Source of the DNA: a bacterium
Lineage (GTDB): Bacteria; Patescibacteriota; Doudnabacteria; UBA920
DNA length: 61,203 nucleotides
Assembly: GCA_021791515.1 (NCBI GenBank)
Contig: JAJYWK010000012.1
Span: 1-61,203 of the forward strand
Direction: 5' to 3'
Shown: in pieces, positions 18,741 to 58,490 of the stretch
Layout of the letters: each line of letters starts with the position of its first letter
How positions within the stretch are numbered: position 1 is the first letter of the stretch
Position numbers and translations under genes: made by a program
The notes under the pieces: generated by a model
The model's input: the letters and a program-made list of their open reading frames with translations, nothing else
The model's database searches: none
What the model was told of the DNA's origin: nothing

Positions 18741-18818
18741 AACTAGATAATTAGTTGGTTAGAGAATTAGAGAAATAGACTTTACTAATTCTCTGTCTCT
18801 CTAATTTTCTGACTCTTT

Positions 18819-19220: not shown

Positions 19221-19306
19221 AGAATTAATTCAAAATTTAAATATCAAAGTGTAAAATGTAGTTGTCGCTTCGCGACTCTATAATTTTGCATTTTGATTTT
19301 TGCATT

Positions 19307-19552: not shown

Positions 19553-19563
19553 ATTCTTGATAC

Positions 19564-19764
19564 TTACTGCTTACTGCTTACTGCTTTTGAATGTAAATAA
19601 GTCATTATTCTGGCAATGTCTTTTTTGACCACTCCGAGCTCATGGGTATTCTTTAGCTGATTAAGCCGGATTTTAACCCCTAAATCCTGCGCCTTTTCTT
19701 TCAATTCCAAAAGCAGGTTCTTAATTTCAGCGTCTGATTTAGTTTTCAGTTCTTTAAAATTCAT
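19564..19764 (-). CDS. rpmC: 50S ribosomal protein L29
   Basis: 66 aa, ELKTKSDAEIKNLLLELK, operon position. Confidence 0.88.
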   Translation of the reverse strand: MNFKELKTKSDAEIKNLLLELKEKAQDLGVKIRLNQLKNTHELGVVKKDIARIMTYLHSKAVSSKQ

Positions 19765-20007
19765 AATAGCTTATTCCTTATAGTCTCCCTCTCCAATTCA
19801 CGGAGAGGGAAATTTCGCGTTAGCGAAATGGGGAGAGGTTAAATCCTTGGGTTCAAACCTCTCTGTCCAGCTCCACTTTCTATCGGTTATTTATCTTCTT
19901 ATTAACAATCTTTCCTAATGATGATTATTAACCTCTATTCTATAACCTTCAGAAAGTGGGACTGGACATCTCCCCATGCTTTGGGGAGAAAAATAATGTG
20001 CTTCGCG
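19765..20007 (-). repeat. Intercistronic mosaic hairpin element, long form (class II)
   Basis: Fills the rplP-stop to rpmC-start gap. Confidence 0.95.
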
Positions 20008-20424
20008 CTATCCCTGTTTCTCCTTCTCCAAAAATTTACTCTTTACCGGCAGTTTATAGCTGGCCAATCTCATGGCTTCCTGTGCCTGGTCCCGGGTTAC
20101 GCCGTCCATTTCAAACAAAATTTTCCCGCGTTTGACAACAGATACAAAATGATCCACCGCGCCTTTACCGCCACCCATAGGGCTCTCGTTTCCGTGCAAG
20201 GTGACCGGCTTGTCCGCAAACACACGGATCCAAATCTTTCCGCCTCTTTGCACGTAGCGGGTCATGGCTCGCCTGGCCGCTTCAATCTGCCTGGCTGTAA
20301 CCCAAGAACTTTCGGTGGCTTTAAGCGCAAACTGCCCAAAAGCAATCTGCTCGCCGGCCGAGGCCTGTCCTTTGGTATGACCGCGATGATGCTTGCGGTG
20401 TTTAAGTTTCTTAGGGATGAACAT
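20008..20424 (-). CDS. rplP: 50S ribosomal protein L16
   Basis: [15 protein letters not shown]. Confidence 0.93.
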
Positions 20425-20555
20425 ATATCTTTACAATCAATTTCTTAATTTCTATTAATTTCGCGAAAGCCGAAGGCTTGAACTAATTTCATAATAATAT
20501 TGATAGAAATTTGTTCGCCTTTCAGGCTCACGAAATTTGGAAATTGTCTTGAATA

Positions 20556-21206
20556 TTAAACCTTCTGCCTTTCTTCAAACTTATCTCCCTTATAAATCCA
20601 AATCTTTACGCCCACGGTTCCATATGTAGTAAATGCGGTGCTTCTGGCAAAATCAATGTCAGCCCTTAAAGTGTGAAGCGGAATTTTTCCGGAAGACAAA
20701 TGTTCGGTTCTGGCAATGTCCGCGCCGTTAAGCCTGCCGCCAATTGCTACTTTTGCTCCTTTGGCCCCCGCGTTCATTATCTGCTCCAAAGACTGCTTCA
20801 TCAGTTTTCTAAATGCCACGCGCTTTTCCAACTGCTCTACAATTCCGTTGGCTATTACCTGGGCCTGCAAATTAATGTCCCTTACTTCTTCAATGTTGAC
20901 TTTAAGTTCTTTTTTAATGCCAAGCTTGTTCTTTATCTTCTTTTTTAATTCTTCAATTCCGGCTCCGCCTTTGCCAATAATCAGTCCCGGTTTGGTGGTC
21001 TTTACTATTACCGTGATAGTACCATCATTTAAGCGCTCAATGTCAATTCTAACCAAGCCCGCTTTTTTGAGATGTTTTTCCAAATATTCGCGAATCCTCA
21101 CGTCATCCTGCAGTTGCTTGGCAAAACCGTGCCTTGCAAACCACCTGGATTTCCAGGATTCGGTAATATTAAGCCGTAATGAAGTTGGATTAATCTTATG
21201 TCCCAT
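20556..21206 (-). CDS. rpsC: 30S ribosomal protein S3
   Basis: MGHKINPTSLRL. Start at the internal ATG. Confidence 0.92.
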   Translation of the reverse strand: MGHKINPTSLRLNITESWKSRWFARHGFAKQLQDDVRIREYLEKHLKKAGLVRIDIERLNDGTITVIVKTTKPGLIIGKGGAGIEELKKKIKNKLGIKKELKVNIEEVRDINLQAQVIANGIVEQLEKRVAFRKLMKQSLEQIMNAGAKGAKVAIGGRLNGADIARTEHLSSGKIPLHTLRADIDFARSTAFTTYGTVGVKIWIYKGDKFEERQKV

Positions 21207-21375
21207 ATATAGCTTATTCCTTATTCTCTCCCTCTCCAAGACTTGGGGAGGGAAATTCCACCGAAGGTGGAATGGGGAGAGGTTGATATTAATTTAACCG
21301 TTCAAACCTCTCTGCCCTCGCTTCGATCGGGCATCTCCCCAAGCTTTGGGGAGAATTATAATGAATTTTCTATGT
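21207..21375 (-). repeat. Intercistronic mosaic hairpin element, short form (class III)
   Basis: Fills the rplV-stop to rpsC-start gap. Confidence 0.9.
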
Positions 21376-21960
21376 TTATTCTCCACTCTTTCTATTAAAT
21401 AACCTTCTCTTATTCGCTGCCTTGCTCAATTTCATTTGCTGTTCGGTCGTCTTGCCGACCTCGCTGTGTCTGCCCATTTCCTTTGGCGCTTTTTTGGCCG
21501 CCGCGTCCGCTTTGTCTGCATTTTCGGAAGTTTGTTCTTTCTTGTCTTCCACTTTCTTTAAGAAGCTCATTTTGGTCTTGCTGGCTTTGCCTTTCTTTCT
21601 TTCTTCCAGTACCAAATTTACATGGCAAAGTTTTCTGCGAATTACAAAAGCGCTTCCGCGGGCCCGGGGAAAATACCGCTTCATGGTTTGCCCCATGTCC
21701 GTGGAAATGCTCTTAATAAAAAGATGTTCGGGTGAAAGCGAAAAATTATTTTTGGCGTTGGCAATGGCGGATTTAATTAACCTGATGAGTAGCGGCGCAG
21801 CCTTTTTGTTGGCATGCTGCAATTGGACAATCGCGTCAACCGCGTTCATCCCGCTCACTAAACCGGTCACCAGGCGCATCTTTCTCGGGGCAATTCTAAG
21901 CTGACGGGCAGAAGCTCGGACTAATTTTGGAGATTCGGTTGTGGATGTCTTATTGGCCAT
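21376..21960 (-). CDS. rplV: 50S ribosomal protein L22 with ~75-aa Lys-rich C-terminal extension
   Basis: ASARQLRIAPRKMRLV core; 194 aa total. Confidence 0.9.
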   Translation of the reverse strand: MANKTSTTESPKLVRASARQLRIAPRKMRLVTGLVSGMNAVDAIVQLQHANKKAAPLLIRLIKSAIANAKNNFSLSPEHLFIKSISTDMGQTMKRYFPRARGSAFVIRRKLCHVNLVLEERKKGKASKTKMSFLKKVEDKKEQTSENADKADAAAKKAPKEMGRHSEVGKTTEQQMKLSKAANKRRLFNRKSGE

Positions 21961-21997
21961 TACTTTATAAACTTTATAACTTTATGAACTTGATAAA

Positions 21998-22330
21998 CTA
22001 TTTCTTTTCCGGCTCTTTCGCCGCATTCAGCTTTGCCTTTTCCGCTTCCGCTGCCGCGGCTTCCTGTTCTTTGGCCATCTTACCGCCGTGGCGGGTAAAT
22101 TTGCGGGTTGGGGAAAATTCGCCTAGCTTATGTCCGACCATATTTTCCGTAACAAATACCGGGGTGTGCGCCCTGCCGTTGTGCACCAAAAAAGTAAAGC
22201 CTACAAATTCAGGCGCAATAGAGCAAGCGCGGGACCAAGTTTTAATTTGATCCTTGCCTGCCTTGCCGTTCTGTACTTTCTTAAGTACTCGCGGGTCTAC
22301 GTATGGTCCTTTTTTAGAACTTCTTGACAT
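21998..22330 (-). CDS. rpsS: 30S ribosomal protein S19 (C-terminal Ala/Lys/Glu tail)
   Basis: [12 protein letters not shown]. Confidence 0.92.
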
Positions 22331-22426
22331 AAATGTAATACGAAACTACTAATTAAATACGAACCTGCGAAATGTTATGCGAAATTTCGAATTATTTTCG
22401 TTGTTTCGCATGCGCATTTTCGCATG

Positions 22427-23263
22427 CTACTTGCTTCTCCTTTGCACTATCATCTGATTAGAATATTTCTTCTTTAATCTCGTCTTAACCCCTAACGCAT
22501 GCTTGCCCCACGGGGTTTTTGGATATTTCATACCAATTGGGTTGTGTCCTTCACCACCACCGTGCGGGTGATCTACCGGGTTCATAACTTTGCCGCGAAC
22601 GGTCGGCCGCCAGCCCATATTGCGCATCCGGCCTGCCTTGCCGATTCTCACATTCATCCAATCTTGGTTCGCCAACTGGCCAACTGTGGCCAATGCCTCT
22701 TCTTTTACTTTACGAATTTCGCTGCTGGGAAGTTTAAGCAACGCGTACCCGCCTTCCAGCGTCTGTAGTGTAGCATATCCGCCGGCGCTGCGCGCGATTT
22801 TGCCGCCCTGTCCTGGAATCAATTCAATGTCGTGGATTAATGTTCCAACCGGAATATTTTTTAAAGCCAATCGGTTGCCGGGCAAAATTTCCGCTGTCTC
22901 GCCGTACATAACTTTATCGCCGACTTTCATGCCCTGCGCGGTTAACATATAGCGTTTACTGCCGTCTTTATAGGAAATCAGGGAAATAAAGCTGCTTCTG
23001 GTCGGATCGTACTCAATGGTTAAAACTTTGGCTGGAATATTCTTTTTGTCGCTCCTGGAAAAATCCACAATCCGGTATTTGCGCTTGGCGCCGCCGCCTT
23101 GATGGCGCACGGTAATTTTGCCGCTGTTGTTGCGGCCGGCCGGCCTGGCTTTGCTTACAATCAAACCTTTGGGGGTTTTCTTGAATTTACGCAAAACCGA
23201 ATAATCCGTAACCGAATGGATACGTCTGCCTGCGCTGGTTGGTTTGTAGAGTTTTACGGCCAT
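22427..23263 (-). CDS. rplB: 50S ribosomal protein L2
   Basis: MAVKLYKPTSAGRR ... HPHGGGEG. Start at the internal ATG; the upstream 39 codons are repeat sequence. Confidence 0.92.
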   Translation of the reverse strand: MAVKLYKPTSAGRRIHSVTDYSVLRKFKKTPKGLIVSKARPAGRNNSGKITVRHQGGGAKRKYRIVDFSRSDKKNIPAKVLTIEYDPTRSSFISLISYKDGSKRYMLTAQGMKVGDKVMYGETAEILPGNRLALKNIPVGTLIHDIELIPGQGGKIARSAGGYATLQTLEGGYALLKLPSSEIRKVKEEALATVGQLANQDWMNVRIGKAGRMRNMGWRPTVRGKVMNPVDHPHGGGEGHNPIGMKYPKTPWGKHALGVKTRLKKKYSNQMIVQRRSK

Positions 23264-23408
23264 AAATAGATTATTCTTTATCGTATTTCCCCTCTCCAAT
23301 TCCTGGAGAGGGATCAGGGGAGAGGTTAAATACCTGGTTTCAAACCTCTCTGTCCCGCCTTCGGCGGGACATCTCCCCAAGCTTTGGGAGAAAAATAATG
23401 AATGAGCT
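23264..23408 (-). repeat. Intercistronic mosaic hairpin element, short form (class III)
   Basis: Fills the rplW-stop to rplB-start gap. Central hairpin GTCCCGCCTTCGGCGGGAC. Confidence 0.9.
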
Positions 23409-31838: not shown

Positions 31839-31990
31839 AATAGATTTTCCTTACAATTCTCCTCTCTCCAATTCTTGGAGAGAGGCCGGGAGAGAGGTTA
31901 AAACCTAAGTTTCAAACCTCTCTGTCCCGCCTTCGGCGGGACATCTCCCCTCCGCCAGCTGGCGGACTTGGGGAGAATAATAATGTAAAA
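31839..31990 (-). repeat. Intercistronic mosaic hairpin element, short form
   Basis: Fills the rpsL-stop to rpsG-start gap; modules GTCCCGCCTTCGGCGGGAC and CCGCCAGCTGGCGG. Confidence 0.9.
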
Positions 31991-32404
31991 CTATTTTCTC
32001 TTCGCTCCATACTTGCTTCTTGAGCGTTTCCGACCGTCAACGCCTAATGTATCCAACTTCCCTCTTACAATGTGATAGCGCACGCCGGGCAAATCTTTTA
32101 CCCTACCGCCACGAATCATAACCACGCTGTGTTCCTGCAAGTTGTGGCCAATGCCGGGAATATAGGCAATTACTTCCATCCCGTTGGTGAGTTTCACTTT
32201 GGCAACTTTGCGCAAAGCAGAGTTCGGCTTTTTTGGCGTGGTGGTATACACCTTTAAGCACACGCCGCGCATAAACGGCGCTCCGGTTTTTATGTGCAGG
32301 GTTTTATTTTTGATTAAGTTGACGCGGCGCATAAGCGCAGGGCTTTTGCTCTTGTACTTAAACGGATGCCGCCCTTTTCGAACTAATTGGTTGATTGTTG
32401 GCAT
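31991..32404 (-). CDS. rpsL: 30S ribosomal protein S12
   Basis: [13 protein letters not shown]. Start at the internal ATG; the upstream 67 codons of the tracked ORF are repeat sequence. Confidence 0.93.
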
Positions 32405-32590
32405 AAATAGTCCATTCCTTATTCGGTTCCCCTCTCCAATTTCCGCCAGAGGCGGATCTGCCTTAGGCATGACATGGAGAGGGGTCAGGGGAGAGGTTAA
32501 AAACTTAGATTTCAAACCCCTCTGTCCCGACGAGTCGGGACATCTCACCTCCGCCAGCTGGCGGACTTGGGGAGAAAAATAATGATTAAA
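32405..32590 (-). repeat. Mosaic hairpin element in the rpsL leader
   Basis: Same head (GGTTCCCCTCTCCAATT...) and tail modules as the intercistronic copies; abuts the rpsL ATG. Confidence 0.9.
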
Positions 32591-32847
32591 TCTATCTTGG
32601 CGCAATAAAAACTGATTATAGACATCAGTTTTGCGTCTACTTCGCTCATTCGGTACTCATCAGAAACCGCTGATGTTGCTTCCCAAACAAGTCGACTAAA
32701 ATTGAGTAATTCAACCACAGATTTTTATCGCAGATAAACACTGATAACTTTATCTGTGCCATCTGTCCCAATCTGCGCCCGCCTGCAACGCTATGCGTAG
32801 CATTGCGGGCAGGTATCTGCGGTCGGGTTTCTTATTCAATTAAACGT

Positions 32848-34527: not shown

Positions 34528-36252
34528 TTAGTGCCCGAAAAATCCTCTCGCGTCCTTGTCCGGGAGCATAACCAAAGTTATTTTGTTATCTTCGCAAAAC
34601 TTTTTAACTTCCTCATCGCGCACACTGCCGGAAGTGGCGAAGATGGTTGTAATGCCGGCGTTAAATAAAACCTGAACACCGTCCACAAACGGAAAAAAGC
34701 TGTCGCTGTAGGCAGTGGCATTCTTAACATCATGACCCGCGTCAGTTGCGCGTTTTATGGCCAACTGACAGCAACCCACCCTGTCCTGCTGACCCACGCC
34801 GTTTCCAAGCAGCTGATTATTTTTTACGACCGTGACCGTGTTGCTATTGCTGGTAGAGCCAATTGCCCAGGCTAAAATGATATCCGATTTTTGCTGGTCT
34901 GATAAATTCCCTATTCGTGTCATTCGGGTAGAATTCGTGTCATTCGGGTCGGACAAATTTGGTATAAATGAATAATTTGGCTGTTTTAAAAACCCGCCGC
35001 GCACGTAGCGAAAACGAGAATGTTGATCGAGAGAATTTTTAGAAAGCGATGTGAGAGCCGGATTAACTAAAAATCTGCACTTGTCGCCTTTTCGCTTCAT
35101 TAGTTCTATAGCTTTCTGATCAAAATCCGGCGCAATAATTCCGTCCAGCAAACGCCTTCCCGATTCCATACGATGAGTTAAAAGTACCTCTGCCAACTCT
35201 TCATCTATTTTAAAATTTACCATTACTACTCCGCCGAATATTGCGCGCAAATCCCCTTCCAGCATTTTTTGGATTGCGGTTTTAGCGTCTTGTGATGCTG
35301 ATGCCCCGCACGGATTTCCATGTTTGACCCCAACTGCAATATTCAATTTAGACCTCCCCTCCCCAAGACTTGGGGAGGGGTCGGGGGAGAGGTTGATTTT
35401 ATTCACATCAAACCCCGCGGCTATGTGGGTCATGGTCTGCAAGAGCCTGTCAACATCCGCCAAATTATTGTAAGACGGCGCCGTACCCGCAACTAACTTA
35501 AAATTAGAAATTGCTAATTCATCTTCAATTTCGTTTTTAAACAGCCCAGCCGGCACCTGCCAGGCATTCTCTCCGTATTTAAGGCCCAAAACTTCATGGG
35601 CAACCACGCCGCCAATCTTGCCTTGGGCATGATAGCGGGCTGAAGCCAAAGCATAATCAGACACAACAAATTCCGCTTTGGCGCAATATTTGTTTATAAA
35701 ATTTTCCCTATCCGGCTCGCCGTTTTTTAACCACTCGATTATTTTTGGCCTATCTTCGGGATCACAGACAACTATGCGTCGGCCCTTTGCCGCGCTTCTT
35801 AGCATTGTCGGCCCGCCAATATCGGTTTTTTCTAACACAGCTTCTAATCCTTTTTGTTTCTCTCCCCAAGTTTGGGGAGAGTTAGAGAGAGGTTGATGTT
35901 TAGTAATCTCCTCCGAAAGCGGATACAAATCCACGCAAACCAAATCTATAAACGGAATATGCAAACGATCCAACTCTTTTCGATCCTCATCAATATCCCG
36001 CGCCAAAAGCCCGGCATGGATTTCGCGCGACAGTGTAACCACGCGGTGGCCCAAAATCGCCCCACCGCCGACAAGCGAAGCCACATCTGTGGTCTCAATG
36101 CCGGCATCGGATAACACCTTGGCCGTCCCCCCGCTGGCTAAAATTCTAAAACCCAAAGCAACCAGTTCTTTGGCAAACTCCACAATCCCTTCTTTATTGA
36201 AAACCGAAATTAAGGCTATCCTGTTCTTTACATTTTGATCAATCATAATCAT
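34528..36252 (-). CDS. purH: Bifunctional AICAR transformylase / IMP cyclohydrolase
   Basis: MGS-like N-terminus (SVFNKEGIVEFAKEL..GGTAK), GVKHGNPCGAS, AYSDSFFPF. Confidence 0.9.
   Translation of the reverse strand: MIMIDQNVKNRIALISVFNKEGIVEFAKELVALGFRILASGGTAKVLSDAGIETTDVASLVGGGAILGHRVVTLSREIHAGLLARDIDEDRKELDRLHIPFIDLVCVDLYPLSEEITKHQPLSNSPQTWGEKQKGLEAVLEKTDIGGPTMLRSAAKGRRIVVCDPEDRPKIIEWLKNGEPDRENFINKYCAKAEFVVSDYALASARYHAQGKIGGVVAHEVLGLKYGENAWQVPAGLFKNEIEDELAISNFKLVAGTAPSYNNLADVDRLLQTMTHIAAGFDVNKINLSPDPSPSLGEGRSKLNIAVGVKHGNPCGASASQDAKTAIQKMLEGDLRAIFGGVVMVNFKIDEELAEVLLTHRMESGRRLLDGIIAPDFDQKAIELMKRKGDKCRFLVNPALTSLSKNSLDQHSRFRYVRGGFLKQPNYSFIPNLSDPNDTNSTRMTRIGNLSDQQKSDIILAWAIGSTSNSNTVTVVKNNQLLGNGVGQQDRVGCCQLAIKRATDAGHDVKNATAYSDSFFPFVDGVQVLFNAGITTIFATSGSVRDEEVKKFCEDNKITLVMLPDKDARGFFGH
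35351..35396. repeat. Palindromic module inserted in-frame in purH
   Basis: GACCTCCCCTCCCCAAGACTTGGGGAGGGGTCGGGGGAGAGGTTG; encodes LSPDPSPSLGEGRS. Confidence 0.85.
35860..35897. repeat. Palindromic module inserted in-frame in purH
   Basis: CTCTCCCCAAGTTTGGGGAGAGTTAGAGAGAGGTTG; encodes LSNSPQTWGEK. Confidence 0.85.
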
Positions 36253-38921: not shown

Positions 38922-39163
38922 CGGGCTGTAGCCCCATAGTAGTTCCGGCAAGCCGGAACACTACGGGGTAAATATAGCTTGCCCTGTTAAATATTTGCCC
39001 TTGTACGGGATATAGTATAATGGTAGTACGCGTGCATGGGGTGCATGTAGCCCCGGTTCGATTCCGGGTATCCCGACCACGGGCAAATAATATTTAACGG
39101 GGTGAAGTAGTACGCGTCCATGGGGTGGATGTAGTCTGGGTTCGATTCCCAGCAGCCCGACCA
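38922..39163 (+). other. Disrupted/outer tRNA-Pro(GGG)-like gene enclosing the intact tRNA-Pro
   Basis: CGGGCTG (38922-38928) is perfectly complementary to CAGCCCG (39151-39157), which is followed by ACCA. The 3' part has the anticodon arm CGTCC-ATGGGGT-GGATG and the T arm CTGGG-TTCGATT-CCCAG. The D region is interrupted by hairpin elements and tRNA-Pro. Confidence 0.5.
39006..39079 (+). tRNA. tRNA-Pro (anticodon GGG), CCA encoded
   Basis: Hand-folded cloverleaf: CGGGATA/TATCCCG acceptor, GTAT/GTAC D stem, CGTGC-AUGGGGU-GCATG anticodon arm, CCCGG-TTCGATT-CCGGG T arm, A73, CCA. Confidence 0.9.
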
Positions 39164-39270
39164 TGACGAAAATTACTACAGGGTAAAGGTGCGTGCTCGC
39201 CCCGTAGCATCCCGCCGATGGCGGGATTGCTACCGGGGTAGTCCGAGTTCGATTCTCGGCATCCCGACCA
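39164..39270 (+). other. tRNA-derived fragment (T arm + acceptor 3' strand + CCA) fused to a long hairpin
   Basis: ...CCCCGTAGCATCCCGCCGATGGCGGGATTGCTACCGGGG TAGT CCGAG TTCGATT CTCGG CATCCCG ACCA. No matching 5' acceptor strand found. Confidence 0.6.
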
Positions 39271-39348
39271 CGGGCAAATATTTCACTGTTCGTTTCCCAG
39301 TCTACCCCGTAGCCAACCGAAGGTTGTGCTACCGGGGCAGCCCGACCA
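39271..39348 (+). other. tRNA-derived fragment (acceptor 3' strand + CCA only) fused to a hairpin
   Basis: GGGCAAATATTT... CCCCGTAGCCAACCGAAGGTTGTGCTACCGGGG CAGCCCG ACCA. Confidence 0.55.
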
Positions 39349-39384
39349 TTCGATGATGCTTGTGGTCTGTGGTCGAAAGACAAT

Positions 39385-41181: not shown

Positions 41182-41544
41182 TTATTTTTTGAGACTTTTT
41201 ATTAAAACAAACAGCATTTTTTGGACTTCAGTAAGTAAACTTTCCATTTTTGAAAAGTTAATATTCCTGTATAAATCTTTACTAATTATTTCTTGAGTTT
41301 CTAATTCCGCAGATGATGCGTCTGCAATGCTTAAAAATTGAATATATTCTCCTAAATTTTTTCTTTTATATCCTTCGGCAATATTTGAAGGAATAGAAAC
41401 GGCAGCCCGACGCATTTGGCTAACTAATCCATATAGTTCGTTTTTTGGAAACTTTTCAGTAACAAAATAAACTTCCTTTACTAACTCAATTGCCTTTTGC
41501 CAAACTATTAATTCTTTAAATGAAGTTATCATTTTTGTTTGCAA
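41182..41544 (-). CDS. Four-helix-bundle protein (23S rRNA intervening-sequence protein family)
   Basis: FKELIVWQKAIELVKEVY...LVSQMRRAAVSIPSNIAEGY signature. Confidence 0.85.
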   Translation of the reverse strand: MQTKMITSFKELIVWQKAIELVKEVYFVTEKFPKNELYGLVSQMRRAAVSIPSNIAEGYKRKNLGEYIQFLSIADASSAELETQEIISKDLYRNINFSKMESLLTEVQKMLFVLIKSLKK

Positions 41545-41579: not shown

Positions 41580-42638
41580 CTACACCGTCAAATAGGTTTC
41601 CCCTTCGGTACCCTTAGGCTCTGCCATCTTGTGTACAATCTCATTCAACTCCTCTTCGCTGTAAAAATCTATGGTAATTTTTCCGCCATCGCCCTGGCGC
41701 TGGATTTTTACCAAAGTACCCAGTTTGCCCCTAAGTTCGGTTTCTATGGCCATTAATTTTGGATCCGGCGTGGCGGCATCCATGGCCCGCTTTTGAGTTA
41801 TGTCGCGCACTTTTGTTTCCACCTGGCGCACGTTTAAGCCCTGCTCCAAAACCATCTTATACATTATAAGCATGCGGTCTATGTCATTGAGGCCCAAAAT
41901 CGCCCTTGCGTGACCTTCGGTAATTTTGCCTTCTATTAACGCGCGCTGGATTTCCGCCGGCAAATTCAGCAAACGCACGGTATTGGCCACCGCCGGGCGG
42001 GATTTGCCAACCTTTTTGGCCACCTGCTCCTGGGTCATATTAAAGGTCTTCATCAATCTATCGAAGGCCATGGCTTCTTCTATGGGGTTTAACTCCTGCC
42101 GTTGAATATTTTCTATAAGAGCCACTTCCAGCTTGGTCTGGTCTACCATCGCCTCCTTAATTATGGCCGGAACCTTTTCTATGCCCGCGAGCTGGCTGGC
42201 CCTAAAGCGCCTCTCGCCCACCACCAATTCATAACCGCCGGGCGTTTTGGTTACCACCAAGGGCTGAATCACCCCGTGCTCTTTAATGGAATCTGCCAAT
42301 TCTTTTAGCGCTAAGGGTTCAAAAGTTTTTCTGGGCTGGAAAGGATTGGGTACGATTTTTGCCACTTCAATTTCCTGAATTTGCGCGTCGGCATAAGAAA
42401 CCCTGTCGTCAGCCGGGGCACTAACCGCAGTTGGCTGATTAGCCGCCGGCCCAAGACCAACCGGCGCCGGGATCTGAAAATCATTCCGATTTAAAGGCTC
42501 AACCGCCCCAGTAGCAGTCGCTCCGACGTTCGTCGTCTCCACTACGGGGTAAACCGGTTGAGCCTTTGGCAAAACGGCCGGGGCCAGAGTGTCCAAAGGC
42601 TGAATACTAATATTTGGTTGTGGATTTATAGCGTCCAT
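41580..42638 (-). CDS. parB: ParB/Spo0J chromosome partitioning protein
   Basis: LVVGERRFRASQLAG box, HTH TQEQVAKKVGKSRPAVANTVRLL. Confidence 0.9.
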   Translation of the reverse strand: MDAINPQPNISIQPLDTLAPAVLPKAQPVYPVVETTNVGATATGAVEPLNRNDFQIPAPVGLGPAANQPTAVSAPADDRVSYADAQIQEIEVAKIVPNPFQPRKTFEPLALKELADSIKEHGVIQPLVVTKTPGGYELVVGERRFRASQLAGIEKVPAIIKEAMVDQTKLEVALIENIQRQELNPIEEAMAFDRLMKTFNMTQEQVAKKVGKSRPAVANTVRLLNLPAEIQRALIEGKITEGHARAILGLNDIDRMLIMYKMVLEQGLNVRQVETKVRDITQKRAMDAATPDPKLMAIETELRGKLGTLVKIQRQGDGGKITIDFYSEEELNEIVHKMAEPKGTEGETYLTV

Positions 42639-43042
42639 TGGTCTTTCTCCCCTCCTCTTGATGCAAGAGGAGGCCGGGAGGAGTTTAATTCTGTGGTTAT
42701 CACCTGAATTACACCGTCAATATTATTTAAAACTTCATTATTCCAAAATCTTAAAACTTTAATATGATTCTCGTTTAAAAATTCGGTTCTTAGCTTATCA
42801 TGACTTTTATCAGCTTCCCGGGAGTGCTGTCCGCCGTCAACTTCTATCGCCAACCTGCAAAACGGACAATAAAGATCTAAAATATAATCCCCGACGCTGT
42901 ACTGGCGAAAAAATTTTAACCCTAACAGCTTTTTATTCCTTACGCAATTCCAAATTTTTCTTTCCGCTTCTGTTTGGGTTTTTCTTAAGGATTTTCTAAA
43001 ATTTTTCTTATCAGGATTGTTATAAATGGAATTATATACCAT
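42626..43042 (-). CDS. DUF559 (Vsr-like) endonuclease-domain protein
   Basis: TEAERKIWNCVRNKKLLGLKFFRQYSVGDYILDLYCP..LAIEVDGGQH...VLRFWNNEV. Confidence 0.8.
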   Translation of the reverse strand: MVYNSIYNNPDKKNFRKSLRKTQTEAERKIWNCVRNKKLLGLKFFRQYSVGDYILDLYCPFCRLAIEVDGGQHSREADKSHDKLRTEFLNENHIKVLRFWNNEVLNNIDGVIQVITTELNSSRPPLASRGGEKDQWTL

Positions 43043-43117
43043 TTAACTCCCCCTAACCCCCTCTTATAATAAGAGGGGGAAAGTTTGGTGCCTTTGGGCT
43101 GATATAAGGCTGCTTTA

Positions 43118-43357
43118 TGGTGCCGGTGGTCGGAGTCGAACCGACATGCCGTTAGGCGCGCGCTCTTGCCTGTCCGCCGCAGTCCCGCCGCAAGGCGGGA
43201 CGAAGGCGGAAGGCGCGTGTGCCCTGTACAAATGGTGCCGGTGGTCGGAGTCGAACCGACATGCCGTTAGGCGCGCGCTCTTGAGGCGCGTGTGTCTGCC
43301 ATTTCACCACACCGGCACCAACTGTACAGGGTAAATCTGCCATTTCACCACACCGGC
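43118..43357 (-). pseudogene. Outer tRNA-Leu(CAA) gene split by a 114-nt insert (containing the inner tRNA-Leu) and a 42-nt hairpin
   Basis: Segments 43357-43336, 43221-43211 and 43168-43118 concatenate to exactly the 84-nt sequence of the inner tRNA. Confidence 0.85.
43233..43316 (-). tRNA. tRNA-Leu (anticodon CAA), class II, CCA encoded
   Basis: Hand-folded: GCCGGTG/CACCGGC acceptor, GTG/CAC D stem, CGCGC-CUCAAGA-GCGCG anticodon arm, 13-nt variable arm, GTCGG-TTCGACT-CCGAC T arm, A73, CCA. Confidence 0.92.
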
Positions 43358-43388
43358 ATCAGCTGAAAATATTAACCTAAATGTAATT

Positions 43389-43919
43389 TTACCAAAAGCC
43401 AGCACTCACGTAAAGAGTCAGAATGCCAGCCAAAATCCCCACCAGCCAGCCGGCAAAAATGTCGTCAACATGATGATAACCCAAAACCACCCGCGCCATA
43501 CCGTTAATTATTGTAAATAATATCAAAGCGATCCCAAACGGCGGGAAAAAGTAGCAAAGAACCAAAGTAATAGACGCCCAGCTTACGCCGTGATCGGAAG
43601 GAAAAGAGTTTAATTTGATGGTAGGCTCGGAAAGCAACCAAGAATGCACCGGAATAAAATTTAAAACCTGATACGGCCGGGCTTTTTTATAAAATAAATA
43701 AATTAAAGGCGACAAAATTAACCTGGCCAAAACAAAAGCCAAAAAAGCCAGAAAAACTTTTTTCCATTCGCCGATAAAAAGTAAATATCCGCCCACGATA
43801 AACGACAACAAAACCGAATAAATTCCCCAAAACGCCCAAAACCGCCGGAAAGCCGGACTTTCCTTAATTCGCTTTTGCCAGTTTAAATATTGTAGGTCGG
43901 AAATCATAAAGATTGTCAT
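43389..43919 (-). CDS. PAP2-family phosphatase
   Basis: KKARPY, FPSDHG, ARVVLGYHHVDD motifs. Confidence 0.75.
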   Translation of the reverse strand: MTIFMISDLQYLNWQKRIKESPAFRRFWAFWGIYSVLLSFIVGGYLLFIGEWKKVFLAFLAFVLARLILSPLIYLFYKKARPYQVLNFIPVHSWLLSEPTIKLNSFPSDHGVSWASITLVLCYFFPPFGIALILFTIINGMARVVLGYHHVDDIFAGWLVGILAGILTLYVSAGFW

Positions 43920-49211: not shown

Positions 49212-49580
49212 TTAGTTAATTCTTAGAATTCTATGCGGCTTAACGTACAATTCTCTAAAATTATAAATTACCCCTAATTCCCAATTTAGTGCCTGCAAAT
49301 ACCTTTGCACCTGATAATAATCTTCTTTGGTTATAAAAGGCTTGGCCTTCATTTCTAAAGCGATTTTATCAGCTACAACAAAATCCAAACGATTACCCGT
49401 ACCACCAATGGTTTGTTCTCTAACAGCTAAAATTCCCTTTTCTTTTAGCTTAGCCCAATATAAATCGCAATATTGCTTTTCTCTGCCATACCTACCAATC
49501 TCTTTTCTAACTTCTATAGCAATACCATTAAGCCTAAAAGTTAAGTCTTCATATAGCAATTTTGTATTTTTGGTTTCCAT
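49212..49580 (-). CDS. GxxExxY-family protein
   Basis: LLYEDLTFRLNGIAIEVRKEIG ... RLDFVVADKIALEMKA pattern. Confidence 0.75.
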   Translation of the reverse strand: METKNTKLLYEDLTFRLNGIAIEVRKEIGRYGREKQYCDLYWAKLKEKGILAVREQTIGGTGNRLDFVVADKIALEMKAKPFITKEDYYQVQRYLQALNWELGVIYNFRELYVKPHRILRIN

Positions 49581-49619: not shown

Positions 49620-52600
49620 TTATATTACAAGATTTATCAATCTGTCCTTCACAAAAATCACTCGCTTAACGCTTTCCCCCACCAAAGCTTGTTTTACCGC
49701 CGGCAACTGCATAACCAGTTCTTTTACCGCCGTTTCCTCGCTTCCGCTTGGCGCTGTAATTTTACCTTTTACCCGGCCGTTAATCTGTAAAACAATTTCC
49801 ACTGTCTTATCAATTATCATAACCGGATCAAACGAAGGCCAACTCGCTGTTTGCAAAGTTGTCTGACTCTTTGACTTTCCGATTCTCTGATATAATTCCT
49901 CCGAAATATGCGGCGCAAACGGATACAGTAAAACTAAAAACTTTTTTACCGACTCTAGGGTAATAAATTCATCTTTCACTTCGTTATGGAATTCCATAAA
50001 CGCGGAAATGCAGGTATTAAACCTAAACGCCTCTATGTCTTCGGTAATTTTCTTGATCAAACGATTCAAACTTCTTTCGACTTTCTCTGTATCTTTTACT
50101 TCCGACTCACCGACTTCCGACCTTCCGACCTTCCGACCCGCCGATTTCTGATGCGGCGCCTCTGCAATTTCGTTCACCCAGCCCCAAACCCTGTCTAAAA
50201 ATCTGCGCACTCCCACCACGCCCTTATTATTCCACGAAACCATGGCCTCATGCGGACCTAAAAACAATTCATACATCCTTAAAGTATCCGAGCCATAAGT
50301 TTTTACAATATCGTCCGGATTTACCACATTACCCCGGCTCTTGGACATTTTTTCGCCATCTGGCCCCAAAACAATTCCGTGCGGATGGCGTTTGGCATAA
50401 GGTTCGCTCTGGGATACCAAACCTTGGTCATACAAAAACAAATTCCAAAAACGCGAGTATAGCAAATGCAAAGTGGTGTGTTCCATACCGCCAAAATAAA
50501 CATCAACCGGCGTCCAATACTTCTGTTTTTTCAACGACGCAAATTCTTTGGCGTTTTTGGAATCCGCGTATCTTAACCAATACCAGGAACTTCCCGCCCA
50601 TTGCGGCATGGTGTTGGTTTCGCGCCAGGCCAATTTTTTGCATTTTGGACATTTAGTTTTTACCCATTTTTCAATATCTGCCAAAGGCGACTCGCCGGTG
50701 CCGGTGGGTTCGTATTTTTTTACGTTAGGTAATTTAACAGGCAAATCTTTTTCCGGCACCGGCACAGTACCGCAATCTTCACAGTGAATAAGGGGGATTG
50801 GCTCGCCCCAATAGCGCTGGCGGGAAAATACCCAGTCACGGAGCTTGTAATTTATAACTCTTTTTCCATAACCCTTTTCTACCATATAATCCATAATCTT
50901 TTCCGTCGCCGCGTGAATATCCATTCCATTCAAAAAATCGGAATTAACCATAATGCCTTCGTCTTCCTGAACTTGATCTAGCGATGTTATGTCGCCTGCA
51001 TCATTGGCGTTTTTTTGCACCACTCTTTTAACTTCCAATTTGAAAACCTGGGCAAATTCAAAATCGCGCTTGTCGTGCCCGGGCACGCCAACTACCGCCC
51101 CTGTCCCCACGTTGCCTAAAACGTAATCCGCCACATAAAGCGGCATTTTAAAATTATTTAAAGTATTTATACAATACAAACCCGTAAAGACCCCTGTCTT
51201 TTTTCTATTTTCAGCCGTTCTATCCATATCGGCTGCCTCCACTGCCTGCTTTTGATACTGTTCAATTTCCTTCCAAATTTTTTCTTCAATGCCTAAAATA
51301 TTCCTGTCTTTTAAAAGCGGATGTTCCGGCCCCAGCACTACAAAAGTCGCTCCAAAGTTGGTGTCAGGACGGGTGGTAAAGCAAGTAATTTGTGGTAACA
51401 AAATATTTAAAATTAAAGGTTCTTCCTCATTGGTAAAATGCGGCTTCAAGCCATTCTGCTCAATAAGGGCGCCATTTAATTTTTGACTTAAAATTTTTCC
51501 CTGTTCAATAGGAATAGCAAAGTCAGTTGGATCACTAAGCACGGTGATTGATTTGGCTTTATTTTTTATAGTTTCAAAATCAAACTTCCAATTAAACTTG
51601 GCGTGATAATTTCTGGGTCGATCTTTAAATCGTGGCTCAGTAAAACCACCGGCTAAAACTAATCCTGCTATTTTAATAGGTAGTTTTTCCAAAACTTTCA
51701 TTGCCACCACTGCGCCCAAACTGTGTCCAAAAAGAATAGTGTTTTCATCAAACTGACAATTTTGCAATACAAAACTAACCTGTTCTTCCTCCGTAGGCTC
51801 GCTTGCGTTAGGCAGCTGCGGAGCTTGATATTTAACACCTTGCTTATTTAGTTCCTTTTTAAGCGAAGGAAAGAATATTCCATCCGGGGTGCCCTTAAAC
51901 CCATGCAATAATACATAATTATTTTTTAAGTCAAAATTATAGGTGATATTTATCCCTGTCTTTTTTCCAATCCAATTCTCCTGCTGGAGTTTTACCGCCT
52001 CCGGCCACTCGGGCAGATTTTTTAAACCTTCCAATAATTTTTCCGCGTACGCGGTAATTTTTAAATACCACTGCCTAAGTTCTTTCTTTTCAACAGTTGT
52101 TCCGCAGCGTTCGCACTTGCCGTCTATAACTTCTTCGTTGGCAAGACCGGTTTTGTCCTTGGGGCACCAATTAATTACGCCTGTAGACTCGTAAGCCAAA
52201 CCCTTTTTAAAAAATTGCAAAAACAGCCATTGCGTCCATTTGTAGTAGCTTGGATCGGTCGTGTTTACCTCTCTGCTAAAATCAAAACTCAACCCCCAAC
52301 TAAGCATCTGTTTTTTGGCGTTTTTAATGTTGGTTTCCGTGGTTTTGGATGGATGCACACCCATTTTTATGGCATAGTTTTCCGCTGGCAAACCAAAAGC
52401 ATCCCAGCCAATTGGAAAAAGCGTTTCAAAACCTTTCATCCGGTGATAACGGCTATAAACATCACCGGCGACATAAGGCCTTAAATGTCCCATGTGCAAA
52501 CCCGCGCCGGAAGGATACGGAAATTCCACCAGCACGTATTTTTTTAGCTTTCTGGAAAAATCTTTGGCAAAAAAAGTTTTTTTTGTCAGCCAAAATTTTT

Positions 52601-52655
52601 GCCACTTAGCTTCTATTTTTTTATGATTGTATTTATTCATATTAGGCCTGTTCAC
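49620..52655 (-). CDS. leuS: Leucyl-tRNA synthetase with an inserted alpha/beta-hydrolase domain
   Basis: HMGH, TTRPDT, GTGAVVGVPGHDKRDFEFA, KMSKS. 1011 aa. Confidence 0.95.
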   Translation of the reverse strand: MNRPNMNKYNHKKIEAKWQKFWLTKKTFFAKDFSRKLKKYVLVEFPYPSGAGLHMGHLRPYVAGDVYSRYHRMKGFETLFPIGWDAFGLPAENYAIKMGVHPSKTTETNIKNAKKQMLSWGLSFDFSREVNTTDPSYYKWTQWLFLQFFKKGLAYESTGVINWCPKDKTGLANEEVIDGKCERCGTTVEKKELRQWYLKITAYAEKLLEGLKNLPEWPEAVKLQQENWIGKKTGINITYNFDLKNNYVLLHGFKGTPDGIFFPSLKKELNKQGVKYQAPQLPNASEPTEEEQVSFVLQNCQFDENTILFGHSLGAVVAMKVLEKLPIKIAGLVLAGGFTEPRFKDRPRNYHAKFNWKFDFETIKNKAKSITVLSDPTDFAIPIEQGKILSQKLNGALIEQNGLKPHFTNEEEPLILNILLPQITCFTTRPDTNFGATFVVLGPEHPLLKDRNILGIEEKIWKEIEQYQKQAVEAADMDRTAENRKKTGVFTGLYCINTLNNFKMPLYVADYVLGNVGTGAVVGVPGHDKRDFEFAQVFKLEVKRVVQKNANDAGDITSLDQVQEDEGIMVNSDFLNGMDIHAATEKIMDYMVEKGYGKRVINYKLRDWVFSRQRYWGEPIPLIHCEDCGTVPVPEKDLPVKLPNVKKYEPTGTGESPLADIEKWVKTKCPKCKKLAWRETNTMPQWAGSSWYWLRYADSKNAKEFASLKKQKYWTPVDVYFGGMEHTTLHLLYSRFWNLFLYDQGLVSQSEPYAKRHPHGIVLGPDGEKMSKSRGNVVNPDDIVKTYGSDTLRMYELFLGPHEAMVSWNNKGVVGVRRFLDRVWGWVNEIAEAPHQKSAGRKVGRSEVGESEVKDTEKVERSLNRLIKKITEDIEAFRFNTCISAFMEFHNEVKDEFITLESVKKFLVLLYPFAPHISEELYQRIGKSKSQTTLQTASWPSFDPVMIIDKTVEIVLQINGRVKGKITAPSGSEETAVKELVMQLPAVKQALVGESVKRVIFVKDRLINLVI
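50103..50149. repeat. 8-nt CGAYNNNC tandem units inside leuS
   Basis: cgactcac cgacttc cgaccttc cgaccttc cgacccgc cgatttct; encodes SAGRKVGRSEVGESE. Confidence 0.88.
51390..51923 (-). other. ~178-aa alpha/beta-hydrolase (YdeN/RBBP9-like serine hydrolase) domain within LeuRS (aa ~245-422)
   Basis: YVLLHGFKG ... LFGHSLGA (nucleophile elbow) ... VLAGGF ... VLSDPTDFAIP (Asp) ... KPHF (His). Sits between NITYNF and ITCFTTRPDT. Confidence 0.7.
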
Positions 52656-57572: not shown

Positions 57573-58490
57573 TTATTTCTTGAGGTTATTCCTCAAAGAT
57601 TTTAAAAGCTTAATATCTGTTTTTACTTTATCATGTTCTGTTTCTAAGATCAAATAAAAAGACCCGGACTCTGCATACTGCTTACTGTATACTGTATTTA
57701 AATACTCCAAAAATGCCTTAAATCCGGCCTGGCCGATTTTCCCTTCGCCAATATGCTCGTGGCGGTCTTTTCGGCCACCCAGGTCTATTTTGGAATCATT
57801 GATGTGCGACATTTTTAGCCACTTGAGGCCAATGGCTTTATCAAATTGTTTAAAAGTTTTAGCGACTGATGATGCGTCGCGCAAATCGTAGCCAGAAGCA
57901 AACGCGTGCTGGGTATCAAAGCACACGCCGCCAAAAGTTTTAAACTTCATCAAAGGCTCCATAAGTTCGGCCAACTGTTCAAAATTGCCCCCAATAGTTT
58001 CGCCGGAACCAGCGGCAATTTCAAGCAAAAACGCCGTGTCGCCTTTGTATTTTTTTAACACTTCACTCAAACCCGCTTTGGCCTGCTTCATCCCTTTTTT
58101 TGCCCCCAAATCTTTAAAACTGCCCAGGTGCGTCATCACGTATTTCGCGCCCAGCAAATTAGCGCGTTTGAGATCTTCCCCCACTACCGATATAGATCCG
58201 TGGTAAATCCTTGGAGTGGCGGAACCAAAATTTACAAAGTACGGACAGTGCACCACAAACAGAGGTGTCCCCTCTGCTGCAGAGGGGACACCTCTGTCAA
58301 AACACCTCTCCATCTCTTCTTTGAATTTGCTGATAATTTCCGGTGTTAGCTCCGGAGCATTCCCTCCCATCGGCGGACGCGTAAAAATTTGAAAAGTCTC
58401 ACAGCCTAAATCCGCCGCATTTTTAGGCGCGTTCCATACTCCTCCGGCAATACTTACATGGCAGCCGATTTTATACATAACGTCTGTCAT
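57573..58490 (-). CDS. nfo: Endonuclease IV
   Basis: THLGS, LLEIAAGSG, CFDTQHAFASGYD, DRHEHIGEGKIG. Confidence 0.9.
   Translation of the reverse strand: MTDVMYKIGCHVSIAGGVWNAPKNAADLGCETFQIFTRPPMGGNAPELTPEIISKFKEEMERCFDRGVPSAAEGTPLFVVHCPYFVNFGSATPRIYHGSISVVGEDLKRANLLGAKYVMTHLGSFKDLGAKKGMKQAKAGLSEVLKKYKGDTAFLLEIAAGSGETIGGNFEQLAELMEPLMKFKTFGGVCFDTQHAFASGYDLRDASSVAKTFKQFDKAIGLKWLKMSHINDSKIDLGGRKDRHEHIGEGKIGQAGFKAFLEYLNTVYSKQYAESGSFYLILETEHDKVKTDIKLLKSLRNNLKK
58259..58297. repeat. 39-nt perfect palindrome (19-bp arms) in-frame in nfo
   Basis: ACAGAGGTGTCCCCTCTGC T GCAGAGGGGACACCTCTGT; encodes DRGVPSAAEGTPL. Confidence 0.92.

Follow-up and report, generated by a model that had tools for sequence, protein, structure and literature searches.

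A complete tRNA-Leu(CAA) gene within the D loop of an interrupted copy of itself in a hairpin-rich region of a Patescibacteria genome

A complete tRNA-Leu(CAA) gene lies inside a second, interrupted copy of the same gene in a genome of the Patescibacteria, or candidate phyla radiation (CPR). We analyzed a 61 kb stretch of this genome, hereafter the window (61,203 nt, 43.7% GC), a housekeeping region that encodes a ribosomal-protein operon, EF-Tu/G, SecY, LeuRS, MetRS and DnaX. The nested locus occupies 43357–43118 on the minus strand, in the local gene order SHMT-LigT-BacA-PAP2-tRNA-Leu-DUF559-ParB. It reads as fragment A (22 nt), X (19 nt), a complete tRNA-Leu(CAA) (84 nt), Y (11 nt), fragment B (11 nt), Z (42 nt) and fragment C (51 nt). 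Joined together, A, B and C match the inner tRNA at 84 of 84 positions.

Each piece of the locus corresponds to a definable part of a tRNA or of a hairpin. Fragment A (GCCGGTGTGGTGAAATGGCAGA, 43336–43357) supplies tRNA nt 1–22, comprising the acceptor 5′ strand, the D stem 5′ strand and the whole D loop. Fragment B (CACACGCGCCT, 43211–43221) supplies nt 23–33 (the D stem 3′ strand, nt 26, the anticodon stem 5′ strand, C32 and U33), and fragment C (43118–43168) supplies nt 34–84, from the anticodon to CCA. X (TTTACCCTGTACAGTTGGT, 43317–43335) forms the left end of the 114 nt block that separates A from B and consists of a TTTA prefix, the stem arm CCCTGTACAG and a TTGGT leader. Y (TTTGTACAGGG, 43222–43232) forms its right end, TT followed by the stem arm TGTACAGGG. 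Between them sits the inner tRNA-Leu(CAA) with its encoded CCA (43233–43316), presumably the functional copy. Z (43169–43210) is a nested hairpin in which TCCGCC and GGCGGA enclose a second stem, GTCCCGCC TTGC GGCGGGAC, and a CAGG tail follows. On the plus strand Z reads CCTG plus a hairpin, that is, a palindromic element in antisense orientation.

Both blocks interrupt the outer copy at exact structural positions. The 114 nt block directly follows the last D-loop base and directly precedes the 3′ strand of the D stem (standard position 21/22), and Z lies in the anticodon loop between U33 and C34. All four junctions are fixed, with no sliding possible, and none of the four shows a target-site duplication. 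A chance origin of the nesting is excluded by the repeats, which are exact over 22, 11 and 51 nt and complementary at their boundaries. This exact anatomy, the complementary boundaries and the absence of a target-site duplication identify the event as an insertion, not a tandem duplication. The outer fragments are colinear, on one strand and within 240 nt, so the locus is not a permuted or split tRNA gene. The initial annotation had placed all of these pieces, their sequences and the nesting correctly to the base. It gave the bracketing inverted repeats as 9 bp; the bracketing holds, and the inverted repeat proves to be 22 nt long, since the leader TGGT pairs with the encoded ACCA and links the X/Y stem to the acceptor stem. 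X/Y, TGGT:ACCA and the acceptor stem are predicted to form a single helix of ~21 bp. The proposal that the repeats zip the outer halves together is thus only partly right: they lengthen the acceptor stem of the inner tRNA.

Only the inner copy is recognizable as a tRNA gene in the native sequence. It scored 53.4 bits with RF00005 (gathering score 29), and ARAGORN called it tRNA-Leu(CAA). Neither ARAGORN nor Rfam called the outer copy as encoded, permissive thresholds included; after in silico removal of both blocks it, too, was called tRNA-Leu(CAA). Predicted folds are a cloverleaf on an extended stem for the 114 nt block (−59.8 kcal/mol, z = −6.0) and a hairpin for Z (−28.9 kcal/mol, z = −4.4). 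For the whole 261 nt transcript the prediction is a cloverleaf within a cloverleaf (z = −4.8), as it is for two relatives described below, L037 (z = −7.4) and L043 (z = −5.3). In the predicted fold of the window locus the X/Y helix directly abuts the D stem 3′ strand, with a 14 nt single-stranded stretch opposite, and the 5′ junction of Z falls within a continuous helix. Folds and inspection revealed no bulge-helix-bulge (3-4-3) motif at the A/X, Y/B, B/Z or Z/C junction. No Rfam intron or ribozyme matched at E ≤ 1, and even at permissive thresholds none of the Rfam families matched X, Y, Z or any of the other hairpins. Group I introns have a P1–P9 core of at least 200 nt and classically interrupt tRNA-Leu(UAA) at 34/35; Z has 42 nt, sits at 33/34 and interrupts tRNA-Leu(CAA).

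The nested arrangement recurs at the same syntenic locus in diverged relatives. The PAP2 protein of the window has no exact match on record, and we reached relatives (given here by L numbers) through homologues; the nearest named ones are 'Patescibacteria group' and Candidatus Doudnabacteria metagenome-assembled genomes. We compared 19 distinct lineages with a syntenic PAP2-ParB tRNA-Leu locus. Five are nested (the window, L037, L041, L043 and L011), one carries a fragment (L050-52), and the site is occupied by a plain gene in the remaining 13, which include the nearest relatives by SHMT, L022 (92%) and L028 (91%). None of the 13 plain genes has X/Y flanks. The nested relatives stem from different studies and assemblers and include one 372 kb contig.

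The bracket and its position are shared by four of the five nested lineages. In L037 (JGI), a GGCCGAG-type outer copy is split at 21/22 by TTTACCCCGTATAGTTGGT, a GCCGCTG-type inner tRNA and CTTGTACGGGG; this outer copy also holds a hairpin at 33/34, a different family member from Z, and a third hairpin in the D loop. L041 (the 372 kb ENA/NCBI contig) and L043 (Logan, 67 kb) use the same 21/22 site with homologous X/Y, and L043 carries a Z homologue (TCCGCC...GGCGGACAGG) at 33/34. L011 differs in that a complete GGCCGAG-type gene lies within the D loop of a GCCGGTG-type outer copy with no X/Y and with 3 D-loop nt lost. L050-52 retain only a 12 nt 5′ fragment with no bracket, arranged in L050 as fragment, 44 nt and full gene.

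Searches beyond this locus returned no further two-copy genes. A scan of genome contigs for the tRNA 3′ end hit 26 loci, none of them two-copy; many of these belong to unrelated phyla and reflect chance likeness of T arm plus acceptor. Scans of viral sequences with a tRNA segment and with the X+tRNA junction gave no matches, and those with TTTACCCCGCACAAATG gave chance coding matches only.

The bracket is conserved as a pairing. Between the window and L037, 26 of 30 X/Y positions are identical, at protein identities of 64% for ParB and 46% for SHMT. The stem arms read CCCTGTACA / TGTACAGGG in the window, CCCCGTATA / TGTACGGGG in L037, CCCCGCACAA / TTGTGCGGGG in L041 and CCCCGCACAAA / TTTGTGCAGGG in L043. 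Aligned across these four cassettes, the 10 bp stem is paired in 39 of 40 cells; at two positions both sides differ between cassettes, and at two others the sole changes are to G·U. This is suggestive of pairing kept by compensatory changes, whether in DNA or in RNA, with the weak covariation statistics that four sequences allow.

Outer copies decay while inner copies stay canonical. All five inner copies are canonical tRNAs at 52.8–55.3 bits. The outer copies, once their insertions are removed in silico, form a decay series that starts from the perfect copy of the window. That of L037 is still called tRNA-Leu(CAA), with an A28·C42 mismatch and a 2 nt deletion at the variable arm. That of L011 has an abnormal anticodon loop and lacks three D-loop bases; that of L043, with a non-canonical T loop and an extra AAAG, yields no tRNA call; and the 3′ half of that of L041 is gone or unrecognizable. 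Outer and inner copies are different alleles in L037, L041, L043 and L011, in both polarities: the GGCCGAG-type allele forms the outer copy in L037 but the inner one in L011 and L041. Such a pattern fits the prediction that a resident allele is replaced.

tRNA-Leu alleles are distributed as a mosaic that does not follow the host genes. L005, L022 and L038 each have a single tRNA-Leu(CAA), and it is 100% identical to the inner copy of the window. PAP2 and BacA place L028 closest to the window, and SHMT places it second to L022, but its tRNA-Leu is only 79% identical. The gene of L034 and the inner copy of L041 are chimeras of the two allele families. This discordance suggests frequent allele replacement or recombination. 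The strand of the gene also varies: at the PAP2/BacA-ParB locus, tRNA-Leu(CAA) of L022, L037, L043, L044, L046 and L050 runs opposite to that of the window, L028, L005, L032 and L041. This points to repeated inversion or re-insertion, either of the gene or of the nested unit as a whole. In a rough, quick neighbor-joining tree of ParB, the window, L043 and L041 fall in one clade together with the plain L022 and L025.

The inner gene appears to depend on the promoter of the outer one. The only promoter-like site on the tRNA strand (TTTACG, 17 nt, TAAAAT with a TG extension; 43386–43414, minus strand) lies ~20 nt 5′ of the outer start, and the same motif precedes the tRNA-Leu locus of L037 and L038. 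Since this site is upstream of the outer 5′ end, the inner gene is probably transcribed from the resident promoter. No terminator-like site was found within 170 nt downstream. The sequence AAGGCACCAAAC, at 43085–43096 on the minus strand and 22 nt 3′ of the outer CCA, is similar to the 3′ end of a tRNA (..GGCACCA) and may be either what is left of an even older copy or a coincidence, with ~0.8 such 7-mers expected in the flanks searched.

X...Y and Z belong to a dispersed family of hairpin elements. A single design unites X...Y with the additional hairpins of L037 and L041 and with several others in the window: a 4 nt prefix (TTTA, CCTG or CTTG) followed by a stem that starts CCCYG(T/C)A, a variable interior often with a UUCG- or GNRA-like loop, and a 3′ arm that ends (C/T)RGGG. 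In Z the CCTG prefix lies on the opposite strand, and the stem is TCCGCC...GGCGGA. Members occur in both orientations relative to the tRNA and nest in the loops of other hairpins, as at 31923 versus 23351, in Z itself and at 42506–42553 within a 13 bp hairpin. The window contains about ten GTCCCGCC-type, four CCTGCCTG-type, at least six CCCCGTAG-type and many TCTCCCC/CCCCTCTCC-type hairpins, and thus has the dispersed, multi-copy, short non-coding hairpins typical of miniature inverted-repeat transposable elements (MITEs) and Rickettsia palindromic elements (RPEs). Their presence is polymorphic at orthologous sites, namely the tRNA-Leu locus, the parB element and the BacA-PAP2 spacer, which holds a hairpin in the window and measures 108 nt versus 52 nt in L028. 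PATEs derived from IS200/IS605 and REP/RAYT elements insert 3′ of a fixed tetra- or pentanucleotide, leave no duplication and go with a Y1 HUH transposase in the genome. The left flanks of the hairpins studied here (GGCAGA, CTCTTG, GCCAG, CTATA, ACCGG) differ and reveal no fixed target word. A 4 nt CAAG/CAAG repeat at hairpin H-b of L037 is the sole duplication-like trace, and the four junctions of the window locus lack the target-site duplication of MITEs driven by a DDE transposase.

Family members also sit in frame within protein genes. A solo element, TTTA-CCCCGTAG...CTACTGGGG (48 nt; 42506–42553, minus strand), interrupts parB (41580–42638). The 16 codons that it adds, all stop-free (VYPVVETTNVGATATG), fall in the N-terminal linker of ParB, a variable region; the element occupies the loop of the 13 bp hairpin (42493–42505 / 42555–42567) and is absent from five relatives. 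In dnaX (2950–4674), the adjacent hairpins TGTCCGCC..GGCGGACA and TCTCCCCC..GGGGGAGA (4410–4450, minus strand) are likewise in frame and stop-free. The ~30 residues that they contribute fall between the NCE and CGxC motifs and divide the Pfam match to the clamp-loader domain into two stretches. Such in-frame, stop-free insertion into protein genes is the hallmark of RPEs and argues for expressed DNA insertions rather than spliced introns. A clean family member, TTTACCCCGTAGTGTCCGCCTCTGGCGGTCTACTACTGGGG, lies at 10461–10501 of L061 (IMG/VR, 51% GC), between secA and an AAA_24/SLT/NUMOD3 cluster. The L061 contig is classed as viral yet looks cellular; with a member there, the family is not confined to the clade of the window.

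Hairpins are also abundant elsewhere in the window. In the ribosomal-protein operon (~14400–23400; also 31860–32630 and 35350–35880), spacers of 150–230 nt separate nearly every gene. They are built from modules such as CCCCTCTCC..GGAGAGGGG, TCTCCCC..GGGGAGA and GTCCCGCC TTCG GGCGGGAC, some of which include a GGAG-rich stretch before the start codon. These hairpins could be processing or translation-control sites, or could be mere selfish repeats. The longest perfect hairpin of the window is an 18 bp palindrome with a 3 nt loop (ACAGAGGTGTCCCCTCTGCTGCAGAGGGGACACCTCTGT, 58259–58297), half of which (GAAGAGGTGTCCCCTCTTC-like) recurs at 11645.

The tRNA-Pro(GGG) gene provides a parallel case, missed by the initial annotation, so that both tRNA genes in the window are affected. 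Its locus (38922–39352, plus strand) is a mosaic that we could parse in part, with some junctions ambiguous. Native-type nt 1–10 (38922–38931) are followed by an antisense element, H1 (38932–38972), native nt 11–15 (38973–38977) and a left bracket, CTTG-CCCTGTTAAATATTTGCCC-TTGTA (38978–39005). An intact inner tRNA-Pro of a different allele from the native one comes next (39006–39079), then a right bracket complementary to the left, C-GGGCAAATAATATTTAACGGGG (39080–39102), and native nt 18–74, which are 100% identical to the gene of L028 (39107–39163). The inner gene is thus bracketed by a ~20 bp inverted repeat, and 39098–39160 scores 31.8 bits with Rfam as a D-arm-deleted pseudo-tRNA. Further downstream, hairpin H2 (39200–39270) sits at 33/34, just 5′ of the anticodon, in the 3′ part of a third allele, and hairpin H3 is accompanied by the native acceptor 3′ end (39305–39348).

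Relatives repeat elements of this pattern. The tRNA-Pro locus of L011, also partly parsed, has a 13 bp perfect bracket (TTTTACAAACTTG...CAAGTTTGTAAAA) behind an outer 5′ fragment (nt 1–21) and an antisense element, and that of L050 has outer 5′ pieces with a hairpin. The tRNA-Pro brackets differ from the Leu bracket in sequence but likewise end in the CCCYG...CRGGG signature. Insertions at 21/22 and 33/34 recur in both tRNA species, and since the local sequences of the two tRNAs differ, this re-use points to insertion guided by structure rather than by sequence. In L028 (7690–7755) and L029, a tRNA-Pro T arm split by a hairpin and followed by the original terminator lies ~230 nt 3′ of the functional tRNA-Pro, and L022 has a short tRNA-Pro acceptor 3′ end (1480–1502) downstream of its functional gene. 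These genomes have a plain tRNA-Leu locus, and their tRNA-Pro 3′ fragments look like traces of earlier rounds of this turnover.

Taken together, the locus probably arose when a tRNA-bearing hairpin element inserted at 21/22 of a resident tRNA-Leu(CAA) gene, leaving a working inner copy and an outer copy that would be a very young pseudogene. An element of the form TTTA-CCCYGTA...TACRGGG, moving as one unit at the DNA level with a complete, promoter-less tRNA-Leu(CAA) in its loop, would have landed at the 3′ edge of the D loop. A second palindromic element, Z, would have landed between U33 and C34. The resident promoter would drive one transcript through the whole locus, and ordinary 5′ and 3′ end-processing would free a working inner tRNA from its ~21 bp extended stem. 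The outer copy would remain as a pseudogene shell, here too young or too recently homogenized to have diverged. In time the outer pieces would decay and gather more hairpins, with replacement of the resident tRNA allele as the net result. The Leu(CAA) and Pro(GGG) isoacceptors are dispensable in E. coli and Salmonella, where the UAA and UGG isoacceptors read their codons. A transient loss may therefore be tolerated, and rescue and disruption need not have been simultaneous. The initial annotation had offered two readings, an inserted hairpin element with tRNA cargo and an excised intervening sequence. We favor the former on the strength of the same cassette at the same position in three other lineages, the decay of outer copies and the dispersed hairpin family.

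Several observations weigh against this reading. No X-tRNA-Y unit was found outside a tRNA gene, nor was an empty X/Y hairpin found at 21/22. Pfam searches of 57 window ORFs revealed no transposase, integrase, HUH enzyme or reverse transcriptase; an HUH gene is absent from the entire 61 kb. Bracket and cargo are inherited discordantly: L041 and L043 share a bracket subtype and not a tRNA allele, L037 and L043 share an allele and not a bracket subtype, and the type of Z follows neither. With the window, L043 and L041 in one ParB clade, an old arrangement, vertically kept and repeatedly lost, is possible, and would suggest selection on the outer structure. The exact re-use of tRNA positions, the G·U pairs on the sense strand and the UUCG/GNRA-type loops also fit a role at the RNA level. 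In the window the outer copy equals the inner at 84 of 84 positions, and its status as dead is drawn from its decay in relatives. That identity has two possible causes, a very recent event with an identical allele or homogenized A and C tracts; fragment B is identical in related alleles anyway. Finally, the Y-B-Z-C side lacks independent read-level support in the window strain.

An origin of the locus in assembly or in conventional integration has little to recommend it. A repeat-induced mis-join or a chimera of strain variants could in principle exploit the exact repeats of 22, 11 and 52 nt at the locus, and the separate contig L027 (the Logan assembly of SRR22387951, which differs from the window by 2 positions in 5661 nt and possibly comes from the same or a sister sample) does end inside the 52 nt repeat, the point at which an assembler using short k-mers has to break off, leaving the Y-B-Z-C side of this strain known from the window only. 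Up to that point, L027 runs continuously through upstream-A-X-A-B-C(part), that is, from upstream through A and X into the inner gene. Logan contigs are built from 31-mers, and k-mers of that length would span the 22 nt repeat A. The unique X, Y and Z require a genome path that crosses the repeats twice, and the Y-B-Z-C side is backed by homologous arrangements in L043 and L037. Four further lineages, drawn from ENA, JGI, NCBI and Logan assemblies, carry diverged versions of this architecture at the syntenic position, and we therefore consider an artefact very unlikely and give it almost no weight. A remnant of a tRNA-targeting integrative element, left by att duplication and later deletion of the element, would make use of a classic integration site and might explain the partial tRNA 3′ copies found 3′ of tRNA genes in L009, L028 and L022. 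Integration gives one direct repeat, however, and the locus instead has complementary 5′ and 3′ fragments around a whole-gene block of 114 nt; with no integrase in the window and the same 114–115 nt unit in four lineages, such a remnant is highly improbable.

Two other explanations engage the data more closely. One is an architecture that acts at the RNA level, where X...Y and Z would be removed from a single precursor to give two tRNA-Leu(CAA), perhaps through RNase P/Z together with a ligase and cleavage of the RNase III type, or where the outer cloverleaf would serve as a processing scaffold. The predicted cloverleaf-in-cloverleaf folds of the window, L037 and L043 suit it, as do the intact outer copy of the window, the still tRNA-like outer copy of L037, the exact use of 21/22 and 33/34 in several lineages and two tRNA species, and a covarying bracket whose G·U pairs wobble on the sense strand only. 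A LigT-family gene (2′-5′ RNA ligase / 2H phosphoesterase) lies three genes upstream, but equally adjoins plain loci such as that of L028. No junction has bulge-helix-bulge geometry, Rfam found no intron or ribozyme, and the outer copies of L043, L011 and L041 are decayed or half-lost. Being in frame and stop-free in parB and dnaX would be needless for elements that are spliced out, and we know of no bacterial enzyme system that excises and religates non-self-splicing tRNA introns. Excision of an intervening sequence finds no support here, and we regard an RNA-level architecture as improbable, with some room left for it at the window locus, whose outer copy is still perfect. The other explanation dispenses with a dedicated cassette: incoming DNA, for instance by natural transformation, would replace tRNA alleles through illegitimate or short-homology joins in the D-loop block TGGCAGAC, and the hairpins, X/Y included, would be later arrivals or co-opted. 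It accounts readily for mosaic alleles at odds with host genes (79% in L028, 100% in L005 and L022, chimeras in L034 and L041), for the flips in gene orientation, for bracket-free L011 and L050, and for the simple tRNA-Pro 3′ remnants of L028 and L022. It does not account for X/Y, which is present in four lineages, never apart from nesting, and whose position is identical each time and whose boundaries are cleanly complementary. The plain genes, none of them flanked by X/Y, offer no known donor locus, and the tRNA-Pro cassettes share their CCCYG...CRGGG ends despite different bracket sequences. We judge this route unlikely, though it deserves more weight than removal at the RNA level.

We also tried and set aside several narrower ideas. 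An integron attC-like reading, prompted by GTTAAAT...ATTTAAC in the tRNA-Pro bracket, has the wrong box order, and the boxes are absent from the Leu bracket. CTTG targeting of the IS91 type fits only the 33/34 site, on the antisense strand, and the other sites differ. A derivation of X from the tRNA promoter, based on TTTACCCTGTA at the −35 region / PAP2 3′ end of L028, was judged a chance match, with ~0.3 matches expected and the wrong spacing. The inner leader, CAGTTGGT, resembles the native one, CAGCTGAT, which seemed a sign of local self-duplication, but the L037 cassette has the same AGTTGGT leader, which therefore belongs to the cassette.

Insertion of a tRNA-bearing hairpin element, the reading that we prefer, admits a bolder form. 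X...Y may represent undescribed, non-autonomous palindromic elements with a promoter-less tRNA cargo that home to defined loop positions (21/22, also 33/34) of the cognate tRNA gene, their target set not by sequence but by the structure of the tRNA or of a cloverleaf in single-stranded DNA. These would be selfish tRNA gene replacement cassettes that drive allele turnover and horizontal spread in CPR genomes. We put this forward tentatively, as a possibility that falls short of an even bet. If true, one step would kill the resident copy, take over its promoter and make the cell depend on the incomer.

The closest known counterparts are small palindromic repeats. Rickettsia palindromic elements were reportedly described by Ogata and colleagues in 2000, and nested small dispersed repeats of cyanobacteria are said to have been described by Elhai and colleagues in 2008. 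Like RPEs, MITEs and repetitive extragenic palindromic (REP)-like sequences, the hairpins described here are short, non-coding, dispersed in a small genome and polymorphic between relatives; they insert into one another and are tolerated in essential protein genes, in frame (here parB and dnaX), and in RNA genes. Unlike RPEs, they are much shorter (23–48 nt without cargo), make no target-site duplication and bear no sequence relation to RPEs; the loop of one subfamily contains an entire tRNA gene, and members hit tRNA loop positions 21/22 and 33/34. Intervening sequences of 23S and 16S rRNA are likewise extended stem-loops at the loops of structural RNAs, sporadic and apparently spread horizontally, and a gene of the '23S rRNA-intervening sequence protein' family (41182–41544) lies 1.6 kb from the window locus. 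RNase III cuts those sequences out and the rRNA works in pieces, whereas a tRNA cut in the anticodon loop would not work; here, function would instead be restored by the second, embedded gene.

Disrupted tRNA genes and tRNA-targeting elements resemble the locus in part. A box C/D guide RNA resides inside the intron of archaeal pre-tRNA-Trp, where, as here, one stable RNA gene lies within another on a common precursor. In that case both RNAs are functional and the host is spliced; here the host is the same tRNA as the guest and is apparently dead. tRNA-targeting integrative elements and phages also bring tRNA sequence, leave old fragments and replace the allele, but these are kilobases long, rely on an integrase with att sites and duplicate no more than the crossover segment; the unit described here has ~115 nt, a whole gene, an inverted-repeat bracket and no recombinase nearby. 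Archaeal tRNA genes are known for multiple and non-canonical introns, intron transposition, and split and permuted forms (PMC4033280, PMC4390854, PMC3218864), and archaeal disrupted tRNA genes are the subject of Fujishima 2010, as cited in PMC10714607. They share with our locus several non-canonical sites, the D loop included, and related insertions across sites and tRNAs that suggest mobility. They require a bulge-helix-bulge and a splicing endonuclease, and each interrupted gene gives one functional tRNA; here, in a bacterium, there is no bulge-helix-bulge, the interrupted copy decays, and the 'intron' contains a complete second copy of the same tRNA. Among the 57 ORFs of the 61 kb window, Pfam matched no EndA-like domain. 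The locus belongs fully to none of these groups: its elements behave as RPE- or MITE-type repeats, its insertion sites recall rRNA intervening sequences and archaeal multi-intron tRNAs, and its outcome recalls tRNA-targeting integrative elements with a tRNA segment of their own. Full-text literature searches returned archaeal and eukaryotic disrupted tRNAs and CPR rRNA introns, and no nested bacterial tRNA genes or tRNA-carrying palindromic elements, in agreement with the remark in the initial annotation that this arrangement was not known in bacteria. Palindromic selfish repeats that invade genes are known; the tRNA cargo, the logic of self-replacement and the structure-defined targets are unusual and possibly important.

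Small, selfish-looking genes punctuate the surrounding housekeeping region. A DUF559 gene with a Vsr-like endonuclease fold (42626–43042, minus strand) lies 75 nt 3′ of the outer 3′ end. It adjoins tRNA-Leu in the window and L005, is absent in L028, L022 and L037, and is a neighbor only. The 23S-rRNA-intervening-sequence protein mentioned above, encoded on the minus strand, is a bAvd-like four-helix bundle, and a PDDEXK_3 nuclease gene lies at 49212–49580 (minus strand). All three of these small genes vary in presence between relatives. LeuRS (49620–52655, minus strand) contains an inserted alpha/beta-hydrolase (Ser_hydrolase/Abhydrolase) segment at about residues 247–399, which is also found in L040, L043, L044, L046, L050 and L053.

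Insertion of a tRNA-bearing element, if true, would provide a bacterial counterpart to the disrupted tRNA genes of archaea, one in which the interrupted gene is replaced from within the element rather than spliced. It would also account for tRNA alleles being so patchy and mosaic in distribution across these CPR genomes. For annotation, the locus is a warning that CPR tRNA loci can conceal pseudogene shells and nested genes. A compact hairpin family at exact tRNA positions (21/22 and 33/34) would imply a structure-guided insertion activity on DNA or RNA, and it offers a concrete case of small palindromic repeats spreading through the genes that are most conserved in a minimal genome, here the tRNA genes, parB, dnaX and the ribosomal-protein operon.

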